A DNA stretch of 64,000 nucleotides, from IMG/VR virus record IMGVR_UViG_3300032288_005579, one strand, 5' to 3'. Of the stretch, positions 14,761 through 62,942 are shown piece after piece; the first letter of the stretch is position 1; every line of letters starts with the position of its first letter. Source of the DNA: a virus. The notes beneath the pieces were generated by a model, which was given only the letters and a program-made list of their open reading frames with translations, was not told the origin of the DNA and searched no databases. A program made the translations under genes and the position numbers.

Positions 14761-14780
14761 TGTATTTCCACATTTACATA

Positions 14781-53496: not shown

Positions 53497-54459
53497 ATGA
53501 AAAAATTAATCTCGTTATTCGTATTGGCCATTGCGGCCATTTCCTGTCAAGAGGATACATCCCTCTTTGAAAAGCAAACCCCTAAGTTCGATCAGATCAA
53601 TGCAGCCAGCGGTGCACCAGTTACCAACTACACCACTGCAGCATCCTACGTAAACTCTTACAGCTTCAGCTCGGACTTCAAGACAGTGACCATCACAGTC
53701 GACAAGAGCTCAGCCAGTGCCAAAGCCATCAGTCACATGGTGTTCAAGTTCAACGGTGTCCTTAGCGGCACCGGTTGTACGAGCGGTCCTCTCACTCTGT
53801 CCAACATCACTGCTTTCACCGCAAACGGTGTGGACATGATGGGATTCCTCGGCACCACCGAAGGTCAGAACGATTGCTACGGCATGTTGGCGGATCCGAT
53901 CGTTAAACTCGGTCAAGGATTCTCTGATCCGATTGTGGTATTTGTAATCACGTTCGACGTACCTGTATTGGACGGCACATTCCTCATCAAAGCAGGATCT
54001 GCAAACTCCCCGACCGGTGGAGGCTGTTTCGGTCTCAACAACACTAACTACAGCTTCTCACGCACTTGCGTAGTTGATCTTCCTAAGTGTTACCAAGAAG
54101 ATACTGGTTGGGCAGCAGGATCTCGCTACGTTACTCGAGGCAATTGGGCCACATATACCACTTATACATCAGGCGCAACAGTTAACATCTACGCAGGTCA
54201 GAACAAATGGGCTGGCACTGCAACCATGTCAGCTGTGACAAACGGCAATGTGACAATAACTATTGCTCTTAACGAAGGCTGGAGCCTACAAGAAGTGAGC
54301 AATCCCGTTAAAGTGCAGGGATACAGTGTAGCACCCACCGGTAATCCTTCACCAGGTAGATTCTCATCGAAAGGCGCGTCTCTCACTGTGACAGTTCCCT
54401 TTGCAAATTACTACGGCATCCACCTCGATGTTAAGCAATTAGTTGAATGTCCTCAATAA
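53497..54459 (+). CDS. Putative surface lipoprotein, beta-rich
   Basis: MKKLISLFVLAIAAISC-QED signal II; Thr/Ser/Gly-rich; several Cys. Confidence 0.7.
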   Translation: MKKLISLFVLAIAAISCQEDTSLFEKQTPKFDQINAASGAPVTNYTTAASYVNSYSFSSDFKTVTITVDKSSASAKAISHMVFKFNGVLSGTGCTSGPLTLSNITAFTANGVDMMGFLGTTEGQNDCYGMLADPIVKLGQGFSDPIVVFVITFDVPVLDGTFLIKAGSANSPTGGGCFGLNNTNYSFSRTCVVDLPKCYQEDTGWAAGSRYVTRGNWATYTTYTSGATVNIYAGQNKWAGTATMSAVTNGNVTITIALNEGWSLQEVSNPVKVQGYSVAPTGNPSPGRFSSKGASLTVTVPFANYYGIHLDVKQLVECPQ

Positions 54460-54552
54460 ACGAAGAAAGAGAGAAGGAGCTACTCAAGATTTTAGAAAAC
54501 ATAGTTTTCATGGTCTTAGTGGTAGAGCCTAAAGTTGAACAACGCTAAAGCG

Positions 54553-54582
54553 AGAGGAGCCAAAAAGCTCCTCTTTCTTTTT
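54553..54582 (+). terminator. Intrinsic terminator
   Basis: AGAGGAGC-caaaaa-GCTCCTCT followed by TTCTTTTT. Confidence 0.85.
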
Positions 54583-54611
54583 GTCTGATATTTATTTGTA
54601 TACAAGACGCC

Positions 54612-54971
54612 ATGATAAAATTAATGTCTCTATTAAATGAATTGGATTTTGGATTCGGTATGGGTACAACAGAACCGGACTACGAAGATAAGACAATAGA
54701 GGTGACTATCAATGATGGTCTTCAAATAAGAAAACCTGTGAAGGTTAAGGGCCAAGCGCACGTAGGGAAATTACCCGGAACAGATCTTCCTATAATATCA
54801 ATGATGGTACACAAATTGGGAGATAAGCTGGAGTACAAAATAGTTTGGAATTCAAAACAGAAGACATATAATCTATTAGGAAATGATAGGGCTGTATTTG
54901 AACCAGAGAATGATGAAGCATTGAATATGTTCTTAAAATTAAGAAAGAAGAGAGAAAAAACTTCTGCGTAA
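54612..54971 (+). CDS. MIKL-leader protein
   Basis: Starts MIKLMSLLNE; TATTTATT variant at 54589. Confidence 0.7.
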   Translation: MIKLMSLLNELDFGFGMGTTEPDYEDKTIEVTINDGLQIRKPVKVKGQAHVGKLPGTDLPIISMMVHKLGDKLEYKIVWNSKQKTYNLLGNDRAVFEPENDEALNMFLKLRKKREKTSA

Positions 54972-54975
54972 AAAC

Positions 54976-55266
54976 ATGAAAGCTTTTATTTTTGTAGTAT
55001 TAATAACCTTGTTTTCTGGATGCGCTGCATTCGTTGGTGTGTACGACGAAGACGGTATGTATTCCACCATGAATCGCAGAGTACAGATCAGACCCAGATA
55101 TTCTCCCTTTTACTATCCGTCTTATTATTATGATCCGTATAGATTCTATTATCCATACAGTATAAATGCGCCCAACGTGATCATAATAAAACCCAATGAG
55201 AGCCACAATAGCGGAGTTCAGAGGCATAATTATTCAGGACCAAGAAGAGGATCAAGAAATAAATGA
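54976..55266 (+). CDS. Putative small lipoprotein, Tyr/Pro-rich
   Basis: MKAFIFVVLITLFSGC lipobox. Confidence 0.6.
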   Translation: MKAFIFVVLITLFSGCAAFVGVYDEDGMYSTMNRRVQIRPRYSPFYYPSYYYDPYRFYYPYSINAPNVIIIKPNESHNSGVQRHNYSGPRRGSRNK

Positions 55267-55278
55267 TTAATTTAAAAT

Positions 55279-56139
55279 ATGAAAGATTTCTTCTTTGCGT
55301 ATACGGTTATAGGCCCGAAAAGAATTAGACGCATACAAAATACACTAACAAATTTTCCAAAGAATTCTAACATACTGATTGTAACGAATACGCCTGAGAT
55401 GTTCGATGGTGTTTCGACAGATTGCAACTTATACGTCGTAAACATAGAGGATTTAAGAACAGACAAGAATCGAGAGCAAGAACCTTTGATCTGTTCCACA
55501 AACGATGAGGAGTACGATGCAATATACAATTCTCGTATACACACTCGCGAGAGATTTCCAGGTCCAGTCATCAGACACGCTATGTTTTGGTTACTTAAAA
55601 ACAATGCAACCAAATTTGCACTCATAGATCCGGGTTGTGCGCCTTTACGGGCAACAGAGGTGATCAATGATCTATCGAACACCACTTCCCACCAAAACAT
55701 AATACTATTAAATCCGCTGGGAAACATTCAAAGTGGAACAAATTTAAAATACATGATAGAGAGCGCGAACTGTTTAGACATCGTAGAGTCTTGCGGTGTA
55801 GACCTCAGTGAACCTAAAACCGCTTCTTTTAGATGGAGATTGGATAATCAAACAGACGACGTAAAATTAGAGAAAACAGTGGGGAGCGAGGGTTACATGT
55901 ACGGATATTGGTTCAACAACAAAGAGAGATTGGATCTCTACTATCATCTATGGAATTCGATATCAGAGAGGATCGTAGAAACAGGCAAATCTCACGGGTG
56001 TTTGGAAGGAACGGGTTGGTCTATAGAGCAAGCAGCGGATATGGTCAATAATGTATTCGCATTTCATTTCGATACGCTTTTAGCAGGTCACAACGATATT
56101 ATAAAACACGTATACACAAGTCTTTGGCCGAAGACATAA
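55279..56139 (+). CDS. Hypothetical protein (possible GT-A fold)
   Basis: 286 aa ahead of the second sugar block; no clear motif. Confidence 0.6.
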   Translation: MKDFFFAYTVIGPKRIRRIQNTLTNFPKNSNILIVTNTPEMFDGVSTDCNLYVVNIEDLRTDKNREQEPLICSTNDEEYDAIYNSRIHTRERFPGPVIRHAMFWLLKNNATKFALIDPGCAPLRATEVINDLSNTTSHQNIILLNPLGNIQSGTNLKYMIESANCLDIVESCGVDLSEPKTASFRWRLDNQTDDVKLEKTVGSEGYMYGYWFNNKERLDLYYHLWNSISERIVETGKSHGCLEGTGWSIEQAADMVNNVFAFHFDTLLAGHNDIIKHVYTSLWPKT

Positions 56140-56155
56140 TAAATGCTGAAACACA

Positions 56156-56163
56156 TATTTATA
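56156..56163 (+). promoter_or_regulatory. TATTTATA motif
   Basis: Exact octamer 29 nt before ATG 56193. Confidence 0.55.
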
Positions 56164-56192
56164 GCCAGATAGGTCAAAAACACTAAAACGTT

Positions 56193-57476
56193 ATGATAGA
56201 TCCACAAAACATAAACAATCTTGTAGGCAATCACGTCGCTCCCTACATATACAACAGCAAGAGCTTCGTTCCAGGGAAAACTACCGTATATTATTCCGGC
56301 CCTTATTGGGACAACAGAGAGGTTTCTGCCGCGATAGACACTTTTTTAAACGGAAAATGGATAACTGCAGGAAGTTCTGTTCACAAATTCGAACACAGTT
56401 TTGGAAAACGATTCAATTCTAAATACAATCTAATGGTAAACTCAGGTTCCTCAGCGAACCTGGTTTTAATAGCAGCGTTAAAAAAGAGATTCGGTTGGGA
56501 AGACGATGATGAGATCATCGTATCGCCCGTTGGATTCGCTACAACTATATCTGTCATATATCAAAACAGACTAAAACCGATGTTCGTCGACATAGAGTGG
56601 GACACTCTTAACTTTGATCTTGATGCAGTAGAGAAGAAGATAACGAAGAGAACAAAAGCCATATTCATTTCTCCAGTTTTGGGAAACCCTCCAGATTTTG
56701 ATAGACTCTTACAGATGGCAGAGAAATACGGGATACTGTTGGTCGGGGACAATTGTGATAGTTTGGGTTCTAAGTGGAGAGGCAAATACCTCAACGAATA
56801 CTACGTAGCATTTTCCAACTCATTTTATCCGGCCCATCACATATCTACTGGAGAGGGTGGCATGGTTTGTACCAACGACGAACAACTTCATAAGACGATG
56901 ATGAGCATCGCATGGTGGGGAAGGGATTGCTACTGCGTTGGATCTGCCAATCTATTGGCTTGCGGAACTTGCGGTAAAAGGTTCGATAAGTGGTTGGATA
57001 CCTACGAAGGCGTGATAGATCATAAGTATGTGTTCTCAAACATGGGATACAACTTGAAACCTCTAGATTTGCAGGGCGCCATAGGTTCTGTGCAGTTAGA
57101 AAAGTTGGACGAGATAGAACATAACAGAAAGAATTCAAAAAACACCATAGAGAGGATATTCACAGAGAACATAGAAGGCATATCCACGCCCAAAACCCTT
57201 GAGCACGCCGATCCTTGCTGGTTCGGAACTCCGTTCATTTGCGAAAAGCCCGGTCTTAAGCATCGGTTGGTGGAATACTTAGAAGAAAATAAAATACAGA
57301 CAAGGAACTACTTCGCTGGAAACATACTGCTCCACCCTGGATACAGCTTCCTCGACAACAGTTCAGAATATCCAGAGGCCAACAAAGTGTTGGATAAGGT
57401 GTTTTTCATCGGCGCTGCGCCGCACTATAACGAGAACGTATTCTCATACATCGAAGAGGTAATAAAGAAATTTTAG
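56193..57476 (+). CDS. rfbH: Second E1-type 3-dehydrase
   Basis: VNSGSSANL, SFYPAHHISTGEGG, WGRDCYC...C..C. Confidence 0.88.
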   Translation: MIDPQNINNLVGNHVAPYIYNSKSFVPGKTTVYYSGPYWDNREVSAAIDTFLNGKWITAGSSVHKFEHSFGKRFNSKYNLMVNSGSSANLVLIAALKKRFGWEDDDEIIVSPVGFATTISVIYQNRLKPMFVDIEWDTLNFDLDAVEKKITKRTKAIFISPVLGNPPDFDRLLQMAEKYGILLVGDNCDSLGSKWRGKYLNEYYVAFSNSFYPAHHISTGEGGMVCTNDEQLHKTMMSIAWWGRDCYCVGSANLLACGTCGKRFDKWLDTYEGVIDHKYVFSNMGYNLKPLDLQGAIGSVQLEKLDEIEHNRKNSKNTIERIFTENIEGISTPKTLEHADPCWFGTPFICEKPGLKHRLVEYLEENKIQTRNYFAGNILLHPGYSFLDNSSEYPEANKVLDKVFFIGAAPHYNENVFSYIEEVIKKF

Positions 57477-57477
57477 A

Positions 57478-58176
57478 TTGGATCCTATCATCATCTTAGG
57501 GGACGGCATGTTGGGAACTTGCCTACACGAGAGGAGCGGTTGGGAGTTGCTATCCAGAAAGCGCGATGGTTTCGATTTACAAAATATAGAAGCGCACGCG
57601 AACCGATTCGAGGGTAAAATCGCAGTGGTGAATTGCATAGCTCACACTAAAACTTACTCCAACGACGACAACCACATGAAGGTGAATTACGAGTTTGTGA
57701 TAAAATTGGTGGATCTGTGTCTAAGTAAGAACATCAAACTGGTACACATCAGCACGGGTTACGTATACACAAACAATCGAAACAATCCAACAGAAGAAGA
57801 CACACCAATTCCTCAAGACACTGAATATGCAAGAACTAAACTCATGACCGACGAATATGTAAGAAGGAATATGGAGAATTATGTTATAATAAGATCAGTG
57901 CATAAGATGAAACCTTTTCCCTACGATAACGCTTTTGTGGATCACACGGGTAATTTCTGCTACGTTGACGAAGTGGCTGATTTTATTATAGAGTGTGTTG
58001 AAAGGGATTTTAAAGGGGTATATAATGTGGGTAAGAACACAATGTCCATGTATGAATTTGCAAAGACAACGAAACCGGACGTGAAACCATCAATTAGACC
58101 ACCAGAAATGCCTGAGACGGTTACGTTCGATTGTTCAAAGTATACTAACAAAACAAATGCGATATGGAAAGGATAA
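57478..58176 (+). CDS. dTDP-4-dehydrorhamnose reductase-like SDR
   Basis: LGDGMLG, NCIAHT, HISTGYVY, YARTK; TTG start. Confidence 0.75.
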   Translation: MDPIIILGDGMLGTCLHERSGWELLSRKRDGFDLQNIEAHANRFEGKIAVVNCIAHTKTYSNDDNHMKVNYEFVIKLVDLCLSKNIKLVHISTGYVYTNNRNNPTEEDTPIPQDTEYARTKLMTDEYVRRNMENYVIIRSVHKMKPFPYDNAFVDHTGNFCYVDEVADFIIECVERDFKGVYNVGKNTMSMYEFAKTTKPDVKPSIRPPEMPETVTFDCSKYTNKTNAIWKG

Positions 58177-59138
58177 CAATATATCACAACAGCGACGGAT
58201 CAAGAGATTTCCACTTCCTGTTGAATCAGATAGCTACGCACATGGAAAAAAATATGGGTGCCACTTGGTTGAGGACTTACGATACAGACATAGAGTGGTT
58301 GTCTCACAACGCTGGAGATAGAATGGCTTTTTTACGGGTGTTGGACTGCGAAATACTTATACACTACCACGACAGGGACTCTTACGTGGGAATGACATTT
58401 GGTGATTACCACACAGAAATGACTTCGTTCTTTATAATGAGGAACAGTTCTAAAGATCTATTACTTTGCTCGCAGTATTCGAACACGGCTCTTGCGCAAG
58501 AGGACGTAAAGAATTACGTAAAGTTTCGTTGGTTCCCGTCTCTGTATGTGAAATCAAACTACAAAGTGCCGAAAGGATCAGAATTGGTGGATCACGACGA
58601 GTACTATAAGAAGCGGCAGTCGACACAGGAATACATAGATAAGTTCATATTCCGAGGTAACGTGCACTCAATGGGAAGGGGATCTGCAATTGCCCTTGAA
58701 GGGAACCGATGGTTCGAGGGTCCTCATTCGATGGGAGCGTACCACTTCGAAGAACTCACCAAATACAAAGTCGGTCTCTGCATACCCGGTATGGGAGAGC
58801 TGTGTTACAGGGATATAGAATACATGGCCATAGGAATACCGATGATGAAGTTTGAGTACGTTACACAACTGAACCCACCCCTTGTACCCAATCACCACTA
58901 CATCAGCATAGATCGCATAGATACTGAACAGGATTGGCAAGTATCCGGTGGAATAATAGCGGCGGAAAGAAACGGGGGAGAGCGCCAAGTTTCTGCCTAT
59001 TTGAAAAGGTTTCTCGAAGTAAAGGACGATAAAGAATTCCTGGACAAGATTTCTAACAACGCGAGGGAATACTACGAAACTTACCTGCACCCCGATACCA
59101 GGCTTCAACACGCTCTTCGGTTGATGGAGATAATCTGA
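58164..59138 (+). CDS. Putative glycosyltransferase (GT-B / GT90-like C terminus)
   Basis: FIFRG, LCIPGMGELCYRDIEYMAIG, PNHHYISI, ISNNAREYY. Confidence 0.5.
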   Translation: MERITIYHNSDGSRDFHFLLNQIATHMEKNMGATWLRTYDTDIEWLSHNAGDRMAFLRVLDCEILIHYHDRDSYVGMTFGDYHTEMTSFFIMRNSSKDLLLCSQYSNTALAQEDVKNYVKFRWFPSLYVKSNYKVPKGSELVDHDEYYKKRQSTQEYIDKFIFRGNVHSMGRGSAIALEGNRWFEGPHSMGAYHFEELTKYKVGLCIPGMGELCYRDIEYMAIGIPMMKFEYVTQLNPPLVPNHHYISIDRIDTEQDWQVSGGIIAAERNGGERQVSAYLKRFLEVKDDKEFLDKISNNAREYYETYLHPDTRLQHALRLMEII

Positions 59139-59156
59139 TTATCCAAACCGAGGACG

Positions 59157-59164
59157 TATTTATA
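59157..59164 (+). promoter_or_regulatory. TATTTATA motif heading the MIKL-leader array
   Basis: Exact octamer 23 nt before GTG 59188. Confidence 0.55.
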
Positions 59165-59187
59165 AGAGTATTCAATAGAGAAAGATA

Positions 59188-59748
59188 GTGATAAGACTAA
59201 TAGATTTACTAAAGGAGATGTCTCTGCACAGGTCAAACGCCTGGGAAGAATACGATCTGAAATCCATAGATCCCCAAACCCTTGAAAACATGTTCGCCTA
59301 CTACAAATCCTCTTACGAGGCTGAGGGATTGGACCTGTCTGTCAATTCGCCGCAAGAACTGCAAGCGGATTACAAGGCTGTGGCTATGATAGACGTGGAC
59401 AGGGATAAACAACCCGATTCGTTCATAATATACAAACCCACCCCGTACGGAAACAAGATATCGTTACTGTTCACCAACAGGGCTCCCGGTGCGGCGAAGG
59501 CCGTCATACTCAAGATGATAGAACTCGTGAACACATCAGGTTGGTTCTTAGAAGCCTCTAAGAAAACAGAGGACATACTTTCTAAATCGGGCGCACCAGT
59601 TATAGACGACGAAGACACTATCAAAGGAATCATAGGACCAAAGAAAGCAGCAACAGTCAGATTCAAGAAAGACGGATACTACGAGAGGGAGCTTGGCGCT
59701 GTGCCTGGTAAGTTCATAACAAAGAGACTGTACGGAATATCTAAGTAA
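59188..59748 (+). CDS. MIKL-leader protein (possible GNAT-like fold)
   Basis: Starts MIRLIDLLKE (GTG start). Confidence 0.7.
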   Translation: MIRLIDLLKEMSLHRSNAWEEYDLKSIDPQTLENMFAYYKSSYEAEGLDLSVNSPQELQADYKAVAMIDVDRDKQPDSFIIYKPTPYGNKISLLFTNRAPGAAKAVILKMIELVNTSGWFLEASKKTEDILSKSGAPVIDDEDTIKGIIGPKKAATVRFKKDGYYERELGAVPGKFITKRLYGISK

Positions 59749-59762
59749 AACCAAATCGAACC

Positions 59763-60062
59763 ATGATAAAATTAATCGATCTATTGAAGGAGCAAGAGCC
59801 CAACGACCAAATGTGGAACAGAAACTTTCCCGACGATAAGGGCGAAGAGAGACGGCAACTCGTCAAGACTCTGCAACCCCTGATAGGTCAATACGGGATC
59901 AAGCCAAACGAGGTACGTACGCTATCGTTCGTTGGCAACAAAGCCAAAGTAATGAAAGTAAAGAAGGCACTCATGGCCATGGGAGTGTACGATAAGTTCA
60001 GCGTACCGATGGCCGTTGAACCCGGAACTTGGATAACCGAGTACGAACCGCAATCCTATTGA
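59763..60062 (+). CDS. MIKL-leader protein
   Basis: Starts MIKLIDLLKE. Confidence 0.7.
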   Translation: MIKLIDLLKEQEPNDQMWNRNFPDDKGEERRQLVKTLQPLIGQYGIKPNEVRTLSFVGNKAKVMKVKKALMAMGVYDKFSVPMAVEPGTWITEYEPQSY

Positions 60063-60066
60063 TCGA

Positions 60067-60711
60067 GTGATCAAGCTGGAGAACATACTGAGAAGGAAAC
60101 TTGTGAAAGAGAGCCGCATAGTAGAAGCGGACTCGTTCAAAGGCAAGGACATAATCAGTGTGGACATACAGCAGGAATACCAAAGCTATTTCACTTTCAA
60201 GCCCTCGGATTGGGGCAGGTTCCTCACCAAAAACTGGGAGGGCAACAACATCGTGTTCCTCTACAACGGCGAATCTATGGGCATGACAGACGAGGGAGGA
60301 TACAAAGACTGGTTGCTCAACTACATAGACTACGAACTGCTTGACGACGCAACCTATTACGACAAGGGTTATGCGTACTTCAGGTTCTGCATGGACGAGG
60401 GCATAGACGACGAGTTGACCGTAAAGTTCGTGAGGTTCATGCTGGCCAACGGCATCAACGATTCCAGGGATTTGGACAAAGAGGCGTGGAACAGGTTCGT
60501 GAAAGAGACAGGAGCAAACGCACAGGACATAAGGGACCTTTTAGAGACAGCCGACGACATGATCAATATACCCGATCTGATGGAGGAACTGAAGCGTTAC
60601 TCAAACCCTCTACTCATGGGCGGAGGCATAAACGAGTGCCTAAAAGAGGTGGAATTGGCGATGATGGCGCTGAACAAGCCCTACACGATATATAAGAGAT
60701 TCACTTACTGA
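60067..60711 (+). CDS. MIKL-leader protein, cysteine-hydrolase (isochorismatase)-like
   Basis: Starts MIKLENILRR (GTG start); IISVDIQ and LMGGGINECL. Confidence 0.6.
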   Translation: MIKLENILRRKLVKESRIVEADSFKGKDIISVDIQQEYQSYFTFKPSDWGRFLTKNWEGNNIVFLYNGESMGMTDEGGYKDWLLNYIDYELLDDATYYDKGYAYFRFCMDEGIDDELTVKFVRFMLANGINDSRDLDKEAWNRFVKETGANAQDIRDLLETADDMINIPDLMEELKRYSNPLLMGGGINECLKEVELAMMALNKPYTIYKRFTY

Positions 60712-60712
60712 T

Positions 60713-61315
60713 ATGATAAAGCTAGAGAACATCGCAAAATCGATCAAGGAGGACAAAGAAGACATATCCTTCGAGATAGACACACAGAAAGTACCTGTAA
60801 AACCTGGAGTGCTTTCGCACGAGATCATAACCATAGGAACTTTCGAGATACCCGAAGTGGGAACGGTACAGTTCCAACCGTACCGCCTGATATTCGGAGC
60901 GAACAGCTTGGCGATATTCGACGCGTTCAAAACGAACGAGGTGGCGGGTCTAACAAGACAGGAGTGCGAAGAGCACATAAAGAACCTACCGAACGGGGAC
61001 GAGACCAACAACGCTTACATAGCGGGACTCAGCAACTGGGCCGGTGATCAGGCGTTCCAGTTCTTCAACGTGGCAAGGATCAAGAAACCGGGAATGGCCA
61101 ACAGAGTGCTGTCCCACGAGTCGCTCCACGTAGCACGGATGCTTATCAGCCTGTTCAAGAACGATTTCCTCAGACAGAACCAAGGCAAACCCGATTGGTG
61201 GAAGGACGAGAGAGCGGCATTCACAAACATGCAGGACGAGAACGAAGAGTTCTTCGCAGAGACGCTAGAGCGAGTTACAGGAGTGGCGTACAGCCGCTGG
61301 CAGAAGGTATCATGA
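60713..61315 (+). CDS. MIKL-leader protein with HExxH motif
   Basis: Starts MIKLENIAKSIKE; LSHESLH and a downstream EEFFAE. Confidence 0.6.
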   Translation: MIKLENIAKSIKEDKEDISFEIDTQKVPVKPGVLSHEIITIGTFEIPEVGTVQFQPYRLIFGANSLAIFDAFKTNEVAGLTRQECEEHIKNLPNGDETNNAYIAGLSNWAGDQAFQFFNVARIKKPGMANRVLSHESLHVARMLISLFKNDFLRQNQGKPDWWKDERAAFTNMQDENEEFFAETLERVTGVAYSRWQKVS

Positions 61316-61797
61316 TAAAACTGGTAGACTTACTCAACGAGCTCAACGTTCCCAAATCGGAGGACGCGTATCCACTGACTCCGCTGCCGGGATCTACAGA
61401 TTATCCGTCTCTGTTGATCAACAAGTACAGGTTCACCAATAGGAAGGGCGACGATATGACAGTGGCCGTCAACTTCGATACAAGAGACGAGGAATTGTAT
61501 GTCGTGTTTTATAAGACAAGCGAGGAGGAGAGCGATGACGATGATAAGTATGCTGGAGAAACGGGCTCAGGAGATATGTTGAAAGTATTGGCCACCGTAG
61601 TCGAAGCCGTGAAGAGAACAGTAGAAAAACTTGGAGGAATGGATAAGGTGCGCAAGATCCACATAGAACCCGCGGACGAGAGAAGGTTCAACATATACAT
61701 GCACTACGCTCAGACCCTGTTCCCCGACTTCGTGGTTAAAAGGGTTGGAAAGTGGATGAGTATGCTCAACAGAAACTACAAACCCATAGAAGCATGA
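61312..61797 (+). CDS. MIKL-leader protein
   Basis: Starts MIKLVDLLNE at 61312 (ATGA overlap). Confidence 0.7.
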   Translation: MIKLVDLLNELNVPKSEDAYPLTPLPGSTDYPSLLINKYRFTNRKGDDMTVAVNFDTRDEELYVVFYKTSEEESDDDDKYAGETGSGDMLKVLATVVEAVKRTVEKLGGMDKVRKIHIEPADERRFNIYMHYAQTLFPDFVVKRVGKWMSMLNRNYKPIEA

Positions 61798-62000
61798 TCA
61801 AACTTACAACCATACTCAAAGAGGTGTCCGAGCAGCAGAGCAGGGACATGGTAACGGGAATAGCCGACATACTGCGCGACGTGAAGGACAAAGAGAACAG
61901 GAAGGCGATCGCTAAAAGGATGGTCAAGAAGTTCGATAGGGAAGGAGTCAAGTACGACGAGCAGGAGTTCATGAAGATGTGCGATATCCCGAAGGAATAG
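61794..62000 (+). CDS. MIKL-leader protein
   Basis: Starts MIKLTTILKE at 61794 (ATGA overlap). Confidence 0.7.
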   Translation: MIKLTTILKEVSEQQSRDMVTGIADILRDVKDKENRKAIAKRMVKKFDREGVKYDEQEFMKMCDIPKE

Positions 62001-62033
62001 ATATTTATTAATACAGATTTAAAAATCAGAACG

Positions 62034-62942
62034 ATGAAGAAGGAATTCAACTACAATAGGTACCTCAAGAACAACAGACTGCTGAAGGAGAACGCAGACA
62101 TGGAAGAGGGTAACTACGGCAGCTACGGCGGTGCTTACGCAAGCAGGTACGACGGCGACATAGACAGTTCTCCACGACCCAAGTCGAACATGACTGCCAA
62201 AAAATTGAACAAGCTAAACTTGGTCAAGACGCTCTTAGCAGCCACAAAGACCAAATCAGAGTACGGTTATCCTATTCTCAACAAGGGTTGGGCTTCCGGA
62301 TTCATGAAGTATATACAGATCGTAGAAGATATAGTAAAAGCGGGAGAAGACAAATTCAATCCTGAAAAGGTGATGAGACTTTCCGATAGGGTTGAAAACC
62401 TGCCCGGTGGTTGGGAATCCGCTAGGTCTGCAGGAAAGGAATGGACCAAAATGGAGATCGCAACGTCTGCACTGGCCGGAGCCCTGTACGAAGGAGAGTG
62501 GATAGAACTGATCAAGTATTGGAACAACCTGTGTACAAGCGTTGATGCCTTTAAAGCGCCTGCTCCCAAGGGCATGAAAGAGGGATGGAGAGAGGACGCA
62601 GGCATATACCCTACCAAGAGTTGGAAGGACATAGACGCGGACATGGACGCAGAGCGAGAGGAACTCAGGAATTCAGACGTAGTAAAGAACGCGGCCGCAA
62701 AAATAGGGAGCTTGGTATCCAACGAAGAGGGATTCTCCGCAGAAGACCTTACGTCCGTGCTCAGCACAGCGAACCTGACCCCACTGGAGTTCGAACAAGC
62801 CGCCCAAATAGGAGGATTGGAACTCGATACGATACAGTACATGGACGACGAGTTCGCGGACTACGAGGTATTGAACCAGAACTACATCGATCAAGGTGCA
62901 GCGATAGCCTTCGAAGGTGGTAAATTCCACAGCATAGGTTAA
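62034..62942 (+). CDS. Hypothetical protein with related leader (MKKEFNY...LLKE)
   Basis: TATTTATT variant at 62002; internal MKEG repeat of the [LM]KE motif. Confidence 0.7.
   Translation: MKKEFNYNRYLKNNRLLKENADMEEGNYGSYGGAYASRYDGDIDSSPRPKSNMTAKKLNKLNLVKTLLAATKTKSEYGYPILNKGWASGFMKYIQIVEDIVKAGEDKFNPEKVMRLSDRVENLPGGWESARSAGKEWTKMEIATSALAGALYEGEWIELIKYWNNLCTSVDAFKAPAPKGMKEGWREDAGIYPTKSWKDIDADMDAEREELRNSDVVKNAAAKIGSLVSNEEGFSAEDLTSVLSTANLTPLEFEQAAQIGGLELDTIQYMDDEFADYEVLNQNYIDQGAAIAFEGGKFHSIG

Follow-up and report, generated by a model that had tools for sequence, protein, structure and literature searches.

A ten-residue N-terminal leader on unrelated proteins of a Far-T4 phage, a candidate counterpart of the T4 capsid-targeting sequence

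In phage T4, the internal proteins IPI, IPII and IPIII as well as Alt bear a capsid-targeting sequence (CTS) that is removed by the prohead protease gp21 (PMC9026906, PMC3012670). This CTS corresponds to the first 10 residues of IPIII (its sequence is printed in PMC8442874); targeting depends mainly on residues 4 and 7 and processing on residues 8 and 10, gp21 cleaving after L/I-X-E (PMC9026906). CTS-like sequences have been described in close T4 relatives in the T-even literature, and propeptide-bearing inner-body or ejection proteins are cut by the gp21-related proteases gp175/gp245 in the phages phiKZ, 201phi2-1 and SPN3US (PMC9026906, PMC5694885, PMC10052503). Here we analysed a stretch of 64,000 nucleotides (the window) of the IMG/VR virus record IMGVR_UViG_3300032288_005579, i.e. 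bases 31495-95494 of a 183,411-bp phage record, in which a short leader beginning MI(K/R)L heads a series of proteins with dissimilar bodies. On sequence grounds, the best reading of this leader, or tag, is that of the known T4 CTS and internal-protein system in a new sequence variant with a far wider cargo.

Seven open reading frames (ORFs) on the plus strand of the window start with MI(K/R)L, and five of them show (L/I)-L-(K/N)-E at residues 7-10. Both counts had been claimed in a previous inspection of the letters of the window (the sequence-only reading), and the coordinates and leaders proved correct. The five carry what we call a class-1 leader: ORF A (54612..54971, 119 amino acids (aa)) and ORF F (61312..61797, 161 aa) have L-L-N-E at these positions, ORF C (59763..60062, 99 aa) L-L-K-E and ORF G (61794..62000, 68 aa) I-L-K-E, and in ORF B (59188..59748, 186 aa) the leader precedes a body resembling GNAT acetyltransferases. 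The remaining two, ORF D (60067..60711, 214 aa) and ORF E (60713..61315, 200 aa), have MIKLENI in common; their first hydrophobic-x-E sites end at residue 15 and, as I-K-E, at residue 13, respectively. ORF D has viral-only look-alikes, ORF E an HExxH body and ORF F a sub-threshold DUF6934 match alone. Directly downstream on the same strand, ORF H (62034..62942, 302 aa) bears a longer leader of 19 residues (class 2a), and its L-L-K-E end likewise stands as first described. The leader is also kept, as had been stated, where the start codon is GTG (ORFs B and D) or where genes overlap by 4 nt (the pairs E/F and F/G).

The sole further MI(K/R)L match in the window, at 57697, lies inside a longer ORF. 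A scan of the whole genome revealed one further class-1 gene (minus strand, genome position 119451, with an L-x-E end), which brings the tagged genes to eight, and longer class-2 leaders ending (L/I)-L-(K/N)-E-N were found at genome positions 108946, 113297 and 116729 in addition to ORF H. Within the proteome of this phage, the MI(K/R)L-type start motif is confined to tagged genes and never internal. A chance origin of the tag was considered and rejected: about 0.4 MI(K/R)L N-termini are expected in the genome from positional composition, against the eight tagged genes seen, and all six copies of the extended motif I(K/R)L..(L/I)(L/I/A).(E/K/R) in the 58,892 aa of the proteome immediately follow the start Met. 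Furthermore, 19 of 232 proteins, including the capsid protein and the product of one head-module gene, have (L/I)L.E within their first 30 residues, for 4.4 expected (P 1e-7). Three or four of the ten tag residues are charged, and the tag has no hydrophobic core of the Sec or lipoprotein type (at least 10 residues after a basic N-terminus). Synonymous codons differ between the leaders of the genome.

Behind the leader, the bodies are unrelated by sequence and by predicted fold. BLASTP among them gave no similarity below E 0.03, Pfam and PHROGs searches with the eight window proteins returned sub-threshold rows only, a megablast of the tagged region against cultured phages found no match, and two look-ups in the ESM Atlas gave merely nameless viral clusters. 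The AlphaFold2 (AF2) model of ORF B reached a predicted local distance difference test (pLDDT) score of 84, with a short helix at residues 4-7 and coil at residues 8-20, and every top solved match in Foldseek was a GNAT acetyltransferase; E10 is invariant in the 30 homologues of this family. The AF2 model of ORF E (pLDDT 92, residues 1-10 below 50) has a different architecture, and HExxH is invariant across the 33 homologues of its family, which also have a second acidic motif in common. Neither model includes the leader in the part that is folded with confidence (residues 1-10 have pLDDT 42 and 66). The claim that the proteins look unrelated after the leader is thus borne out, and the outcome that the sequence-only reading had named as fatal to it, a single homologous body family, is not what body BLASTP and the differing predicted folds indicate. 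In the family of ORF H, the leader is almost invariant across homologues only 38-57% identical over their whole length.

The ORF E family deserves a remark of its own. Its structure searches gave no Foldseek match and no VIA-align Z above 4.1; the best structural matches were weak M3-zincin rows (Z about 4), merely a lead. With a confident model, no clear solved relative, bacterial members that are seemingly secreted and phage members with capsid-type leaders, it may constitute an undescribed metalloprotease-like family.

The leaders behave as exchangeable modules. Close homologues of ORF B retain the class-1 tag, and distant ones have a T4 CTS-like leader; on one contig (L179) this leader is found on the ORF B homologue and on five other, unrelated genes in tandem. 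The contigs with this T4-like leader, which belongs to another lineage, are 15-24% complete, and no protease was seen on them. Bodies of the ORF E family are variously headed by class-1, class-2a (as in ORF H), class-2b-like or T4-like leaders. Four other ORF E homologues have hydrophobic N-termini that we read as predicted signal peptides, one of them on a 744-kb contig taken to be bacterial. A 969-residue ORF of a 181-kb relative (L182 8927-11836) combines a cytidylyltransferase/NMNAT-like module, a GNAT-like module of the ORF B type and a third module. The junctions between its modules resemble leader remnants, ending M-K-E and L-L-K-E, and from their sequence may be internal protease sites.

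A scan of the genome and its relatives had been suggested by the sequence-only reading, and it extended the tag well beyond this phage. Using a strict back-translated MIKLxDLL(K/N)E pattern, with an estimated chance expectation of less than one match per 2e11 positions, we found the tag in at least 120 viral contigs of IMG/VR. Among the matches listed, 122 tagged ORFs of at least 40 aa fell into 48 body clusters; the tagged families of relatives comprise P-loop kinase-like proteins, deoxyribonucleotidases (on their own or, in some cases, fused to the former), HAD-type folds and many others. Position 10 is E in 152 of the 172 distinct tagged ORFs of relatives, and positions 11-14 are diverse. 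A looser pattern gave 48 tag matches in 18 phage records, with 1-6 tagged genes per record, for none with the reversed-pattern control. In 596 Gb of cellular genomes, only 45 sites matched the strict pattern, most of them internal or not ORFs; the remainder head the same body families, on low-GC contigs resembling mis-binned phage.

Among cultured phages, Flavobacterium phage immuto (vB_FspM_immuto) has the class-1 tag on gp231 and leaders of the class-2a type on gp076, gp077 and gp069; its prohead protease is gp070. In the same phage, gp087 (L006 9856-10455), annotated as a 5'-3' deoxyribonucleotidase, has a 15-residue N-terminal extension ending L-L-L-E-E before the HAD motif, and its family bears the class-1 tag in other phages. 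In the literature we found no paper naming the tag motif, nor any match for Microcystis phage Mel-JY01, and the paper on uncultivated Far-T4 phages, in which the cultured Rhodothermus phage RM378 is named, does not mention leaders. These three phages are the closest cultured relatives by capsid protein (immuto 53%, Mel-JY01 47%, RM378 35%), and by sequence the phage studied here, a large uncultured phage from water, belongs to the Far-T4 lineage and is related to immuto.

Its genome encodes the machinery that a T4-like tag would call for. A prohead protease gene of the Peptidase_S77 (T4 gp21) type is located at genome 165361-165792 (Pfam E 1.9e-23). When its product is aligned to T4 gp21 (PDB 5jbl), a His and a Ser are present in two motifs, which we take to be the catalytic ones of gp21. 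A gp23-type capsid gene adjoins the protease gene, along with genes for the portal, TerL and a scaffold-like protein, the last assigned from position and acidic composition alone. L-x-E sites, which the sequence-only reading had proposed to seek in capsid, scaffold and core proteins, were found in the capsid protein (E11, E38 and E53), near the start of the scaffold of a 195-kb relative (G003), which begins with a K-L-L-K-E site, and at the end (G-I-L-S-E) of the leader of a small gene (genome 163689) flanked by those for portal and protease. The capsid protein also has V-V-E62 where the N-terminus of mature T4 gp23 aligns. Other genome content includes a ribonucleotide reductase, a family-A DNA polymerase, a chaperone set (GroEL/GroES/Hsp20) and many sugar enzymes.

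The tagged genes are also associated with a promoter-like motif. The 8-mer ATATTTAT occurs 51 times in the genome, 31 of them in sense orientation and at most 45 nt upstream of a start, against 1/51 in the antisense control; the TATTTATA-type motifs reported earlier ahead of these gene blocks are therefore real. Genome-wide, ATATTTAT(A/T) stands 4-30 nt upstream of 31 gene starts, and the genes behind ATATTTAT include those for sheath, tube, TerL and head proteins and some sugar-enzyme genes. Judging from this placement, ATATTTAT is probably the late promoter of this phage. It precedes six leader-bearing genes, i.e. two of class 1 (ORF A and genome 119451) and four of class 2 (ORF H and genome 108946, 113297 and 116729). 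In the window, ATATTTAT(A/T) is found at 14780, 37071, 52137, 54588, 56155 and 62001. Two plus-strand copies of ATATTTAT, at 54588..54595 and 62001..62008, lie 16 nt upstream of ORF A and 25 nt upstream of ORF H, the former with a terminator-like hairpin (about 54552-54582) directly upstream of it. A variant motif, TATTTATA (59157..59164, plus strand), lies ahead of the block of ORFs B to G that starts at 59188.

In relatives, several tagged genes sit among head genes. In G003, five tandem tagged genes, one of them a homologue of ORF G (53% identity), have the protease gene on one side and those for scaffold and capsid on the other, and another relative (G005) has six tagged genes just upstream of TerL and portal. 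We also surveyed the neighbourhood of 120 tagged loci, i.e. 1,222 ORFs about 5 kb either side. Recurrent neighbours were primase, a PD-(D/E)XK nuclease, DUF5856, portal, TerL, protease, scaffold and uncharacterised ORFs; portal, TerL and protease genes were each present on 21-22 of the 120 short loci.

A head-module gene of Mel-JY01 (L132 6336-6563) is annotated as ribosomal protein S21 (RpsU). An 80-aa gene occupies the same place in the head module of G003 (L127; G003 123063-123305) and, by position, may be its counterpart.

Taken together, the tag very probably serves as an N-terminal module of some kind that addresses proteins or marks them for processing. More specifically, sequence and analogy make it rather likely that on what are probably late proteins it acts as in T4, as a signal for both capsid loading and cleavage, and we infer from this that tagged proteins bind the core, are cleaved at Glu10, and are packaged and ejected. 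In such a scheme, the MIKLxDLL(K/N)E leader would be the Far-T4 lineage's counterpart of the T4 CTS. Tagged proteins would be made late, along with virion proteins; their short amphipathic N-terminal peptide would dock them onto the scaffolding core during prohead assembly, and a gp21-type prohead protease would cut after Glu10 (L-x-E), releasing the mature protein within the head, from which it would exit together with the DNA when the next cell is infected. The set of cargo proteins would be open to change: in this phage a GNAT-like enzyme, an HExxH protein and several uncharacterised proteins, and among its relatives P-loop kinases, deoxyribonucleotidases and others. The T4-like capsid-targeting role advanced by the sequence-only reading agrees with each of its testable sequence-level predictions, i.e. 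protease, capsid, L-x-E, late-type motifs, head-gene synteny in relatives, unrelated folds and leader swaps.

Several points weigh against capsid loading. The literature yielded no virion proteome, N-terminal sequence or cleavage assay for the phage or its cultured relatives. ORFs D and E are without L-x-E at residues 8-10, their sites being displaced as described above, and L-x-E is a short motif, meaningful solely through its position and conservation. The protease is encoded in 6/6 other tagged records at least 90% complete, which is weak evidence because T4-type phages are common among large aquatic contigs and the figure has no comparison base rate. Head genes are only modestly enriched in the vicinity of tagged genes, and in the head module of the relative Mel-JY01 the class-1 tag was not seen. 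Finally, the cargo families of relatives include nucleotide-metabolism enzymes (P-loop kinase and deoxyribonucleotidase); to our knowledge, packaging of such enzymes is not known in T4.

It is this last point that keeps alive the main rival explanation, in which the tag addresses a partner other than the prohead core, such as a modifying enzyme, the GroEL/GroES/Hsp20 chaperones, a complex of enzymes, or some pathway of degradation or activation. A metabolic cargo would suit such a partner, and the genome does encode GroEL and further chaperones. This rival is nevertheless without a candidate gene: no modifying enzyme (RiPP-like or radical-SAM type) recurs beside tagged genes in the 120 loci surveyed. 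In addition, the tag ends in a protease motif, conservation stops at E10 and the tagged genes of G003 lie within the head module, so that we hold another partner to be unlikely. A conserved element acting on nucleic acid, either as a recombination linker for cassette swaps or as a translation-initiation signal, with the peptide as a by-product, would account for the tandem, variable arrays of tagged genes; the first codons are A/T-rich, and shared gene starts could aid cassette exchange. Against it speak the varying synonymous codons among the leaders of this genome, as well as the fact that the same body takes quite different leaders sharing the L-x-E end alone. Moreover, the Leu codons within the tag follow the codon usage of the body, which argues that selection acts on the peptide. 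A purely nucleotide-level role is therefore highly improbable, and the leader may still have a secondary role in recombination.

The proteins might also be thought to be diverged paralogues of one family, with the leader as their best-conserved N-terminal helix, since the seven genes are adjacent and of similar size. Such an origin is scarcely credible: sequence similarity ends with the leader, ORFs B and E differ in predicted fold, the leader lies outside the folded body in both of their models, and the 48 tag-headed clusters among the matches listed include P-loop, HAD-type and other folds.

If the T4-like function of the tag is correct, the proteins injected by an abundant and mostly uncultured group of aquatic phages could be read from sequence. 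This would provide a catalogue of candidate first-strike effectors (e.g. anti-defence or host-takeover enzymes) and a portable loading tag for phages of Bacteroidota. A more ambitious proposal, which we put forward tentatively and consider doubtful, is a multi-address loading system of Far-T4 phages. In this proposal, leader classes that can replace one another and all end in L-x-E would mark out an 'injectome' that can be read from sequence, with dozens to hundreds of cargo families, among them acetyltransferase-like, HExxH, kinase and nucleotidase proteins. These classes are MIKLxDLL(K/N)E, an ...NRLLKE type, an ...LAGIL-x-E type, which a head-core gene also bears, and a T4-like type. The number of copies loaded, or their place within the head, might depend on the class of leader, and leader remnants inside fused multi-domain proteins may be sites at which the domains are separated by cleavage.

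As regards the surroundings of the tagged genes, a sugar-modification cassette (55279-59138) separates ORF A from the block of ORFs B to H. It comprises ORFs of 286 aa, 427 aa, 232 aa (reductase/epimerase-like) and 324 aa, of which the 427-aa ORF resembles DegT-type aminotransferases in sequence and has its own ATATTTAT motif. Two further ORFs (53497-54459 and 54976-55266) begin in the manner of lipoproteins, a hydrophobic stretch being followed by a Cys, and these N-termini look Bacteroidota-like; as predicted features, they fit a Bacteroidota host.

Sec-type signal peptides and the cargo-loading peptides of encapsulins are likewise short labels at a protein terminus, which can be transferred and which address their cargo whatever its fold. 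The tag resembles the former in that a predicted signal peptide stands on bacterial ORF E homologues where phage proteins bear the tag, which would be a naturally occurring case of one protein family exchanging its address label, a capsid leader in some members and a predicted signal peptide in others. It differs from Sec signals in being amphipathic and charged, without a hydrophobic core, and from encapsulin cargo peptides, which are C-terminal and uncleaved. A further parallel is found in the giant phages phiKZ, 201phi2-1 and SPN3US, in which many head-internal proteins, packaged enzymes included, are processed after the Glu of a three-residue motif by a diverged gp21 homologue. There, cleavage takes place at S/A-x-E, the propeptides are long and varied rather than one stereotyped 10-residue tag, and the evidence comes from proteomics, whereas it is genomic for the phage studied here.

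The closest likeness is to T4. Both systems have a 10-residue N-terminal propeptide on otherwise unrelated proteins, with hydrophobic residues at positions 4, 7 and 8 (L4, L7 and L8 in the phage tag), an acidic residue at position 6 and Glu10, thus an L/I-x-E end; in both, the genome also supplies a protease of the gp21 family, a capsid protein of the gp23 family and a cargo locus that is variable and arranged in tandem. In T4, an Asp in place of residue 10 prevents processing and leaves targeting intact. In actual residues, the tag shares with the T4 CTS about Met1 and Glu10 only, the leaders of distant ORF B and ORF E homologues being much closer to it. The phage studied here is also of another lineage (Far-T4) with another host range. 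Compared with T4, its tag, known from genomes alone, heads a far wider cargo, of at least 48 families with enzymes among them, and the phage group to which it belongs uses several interchangeable classes of leader.

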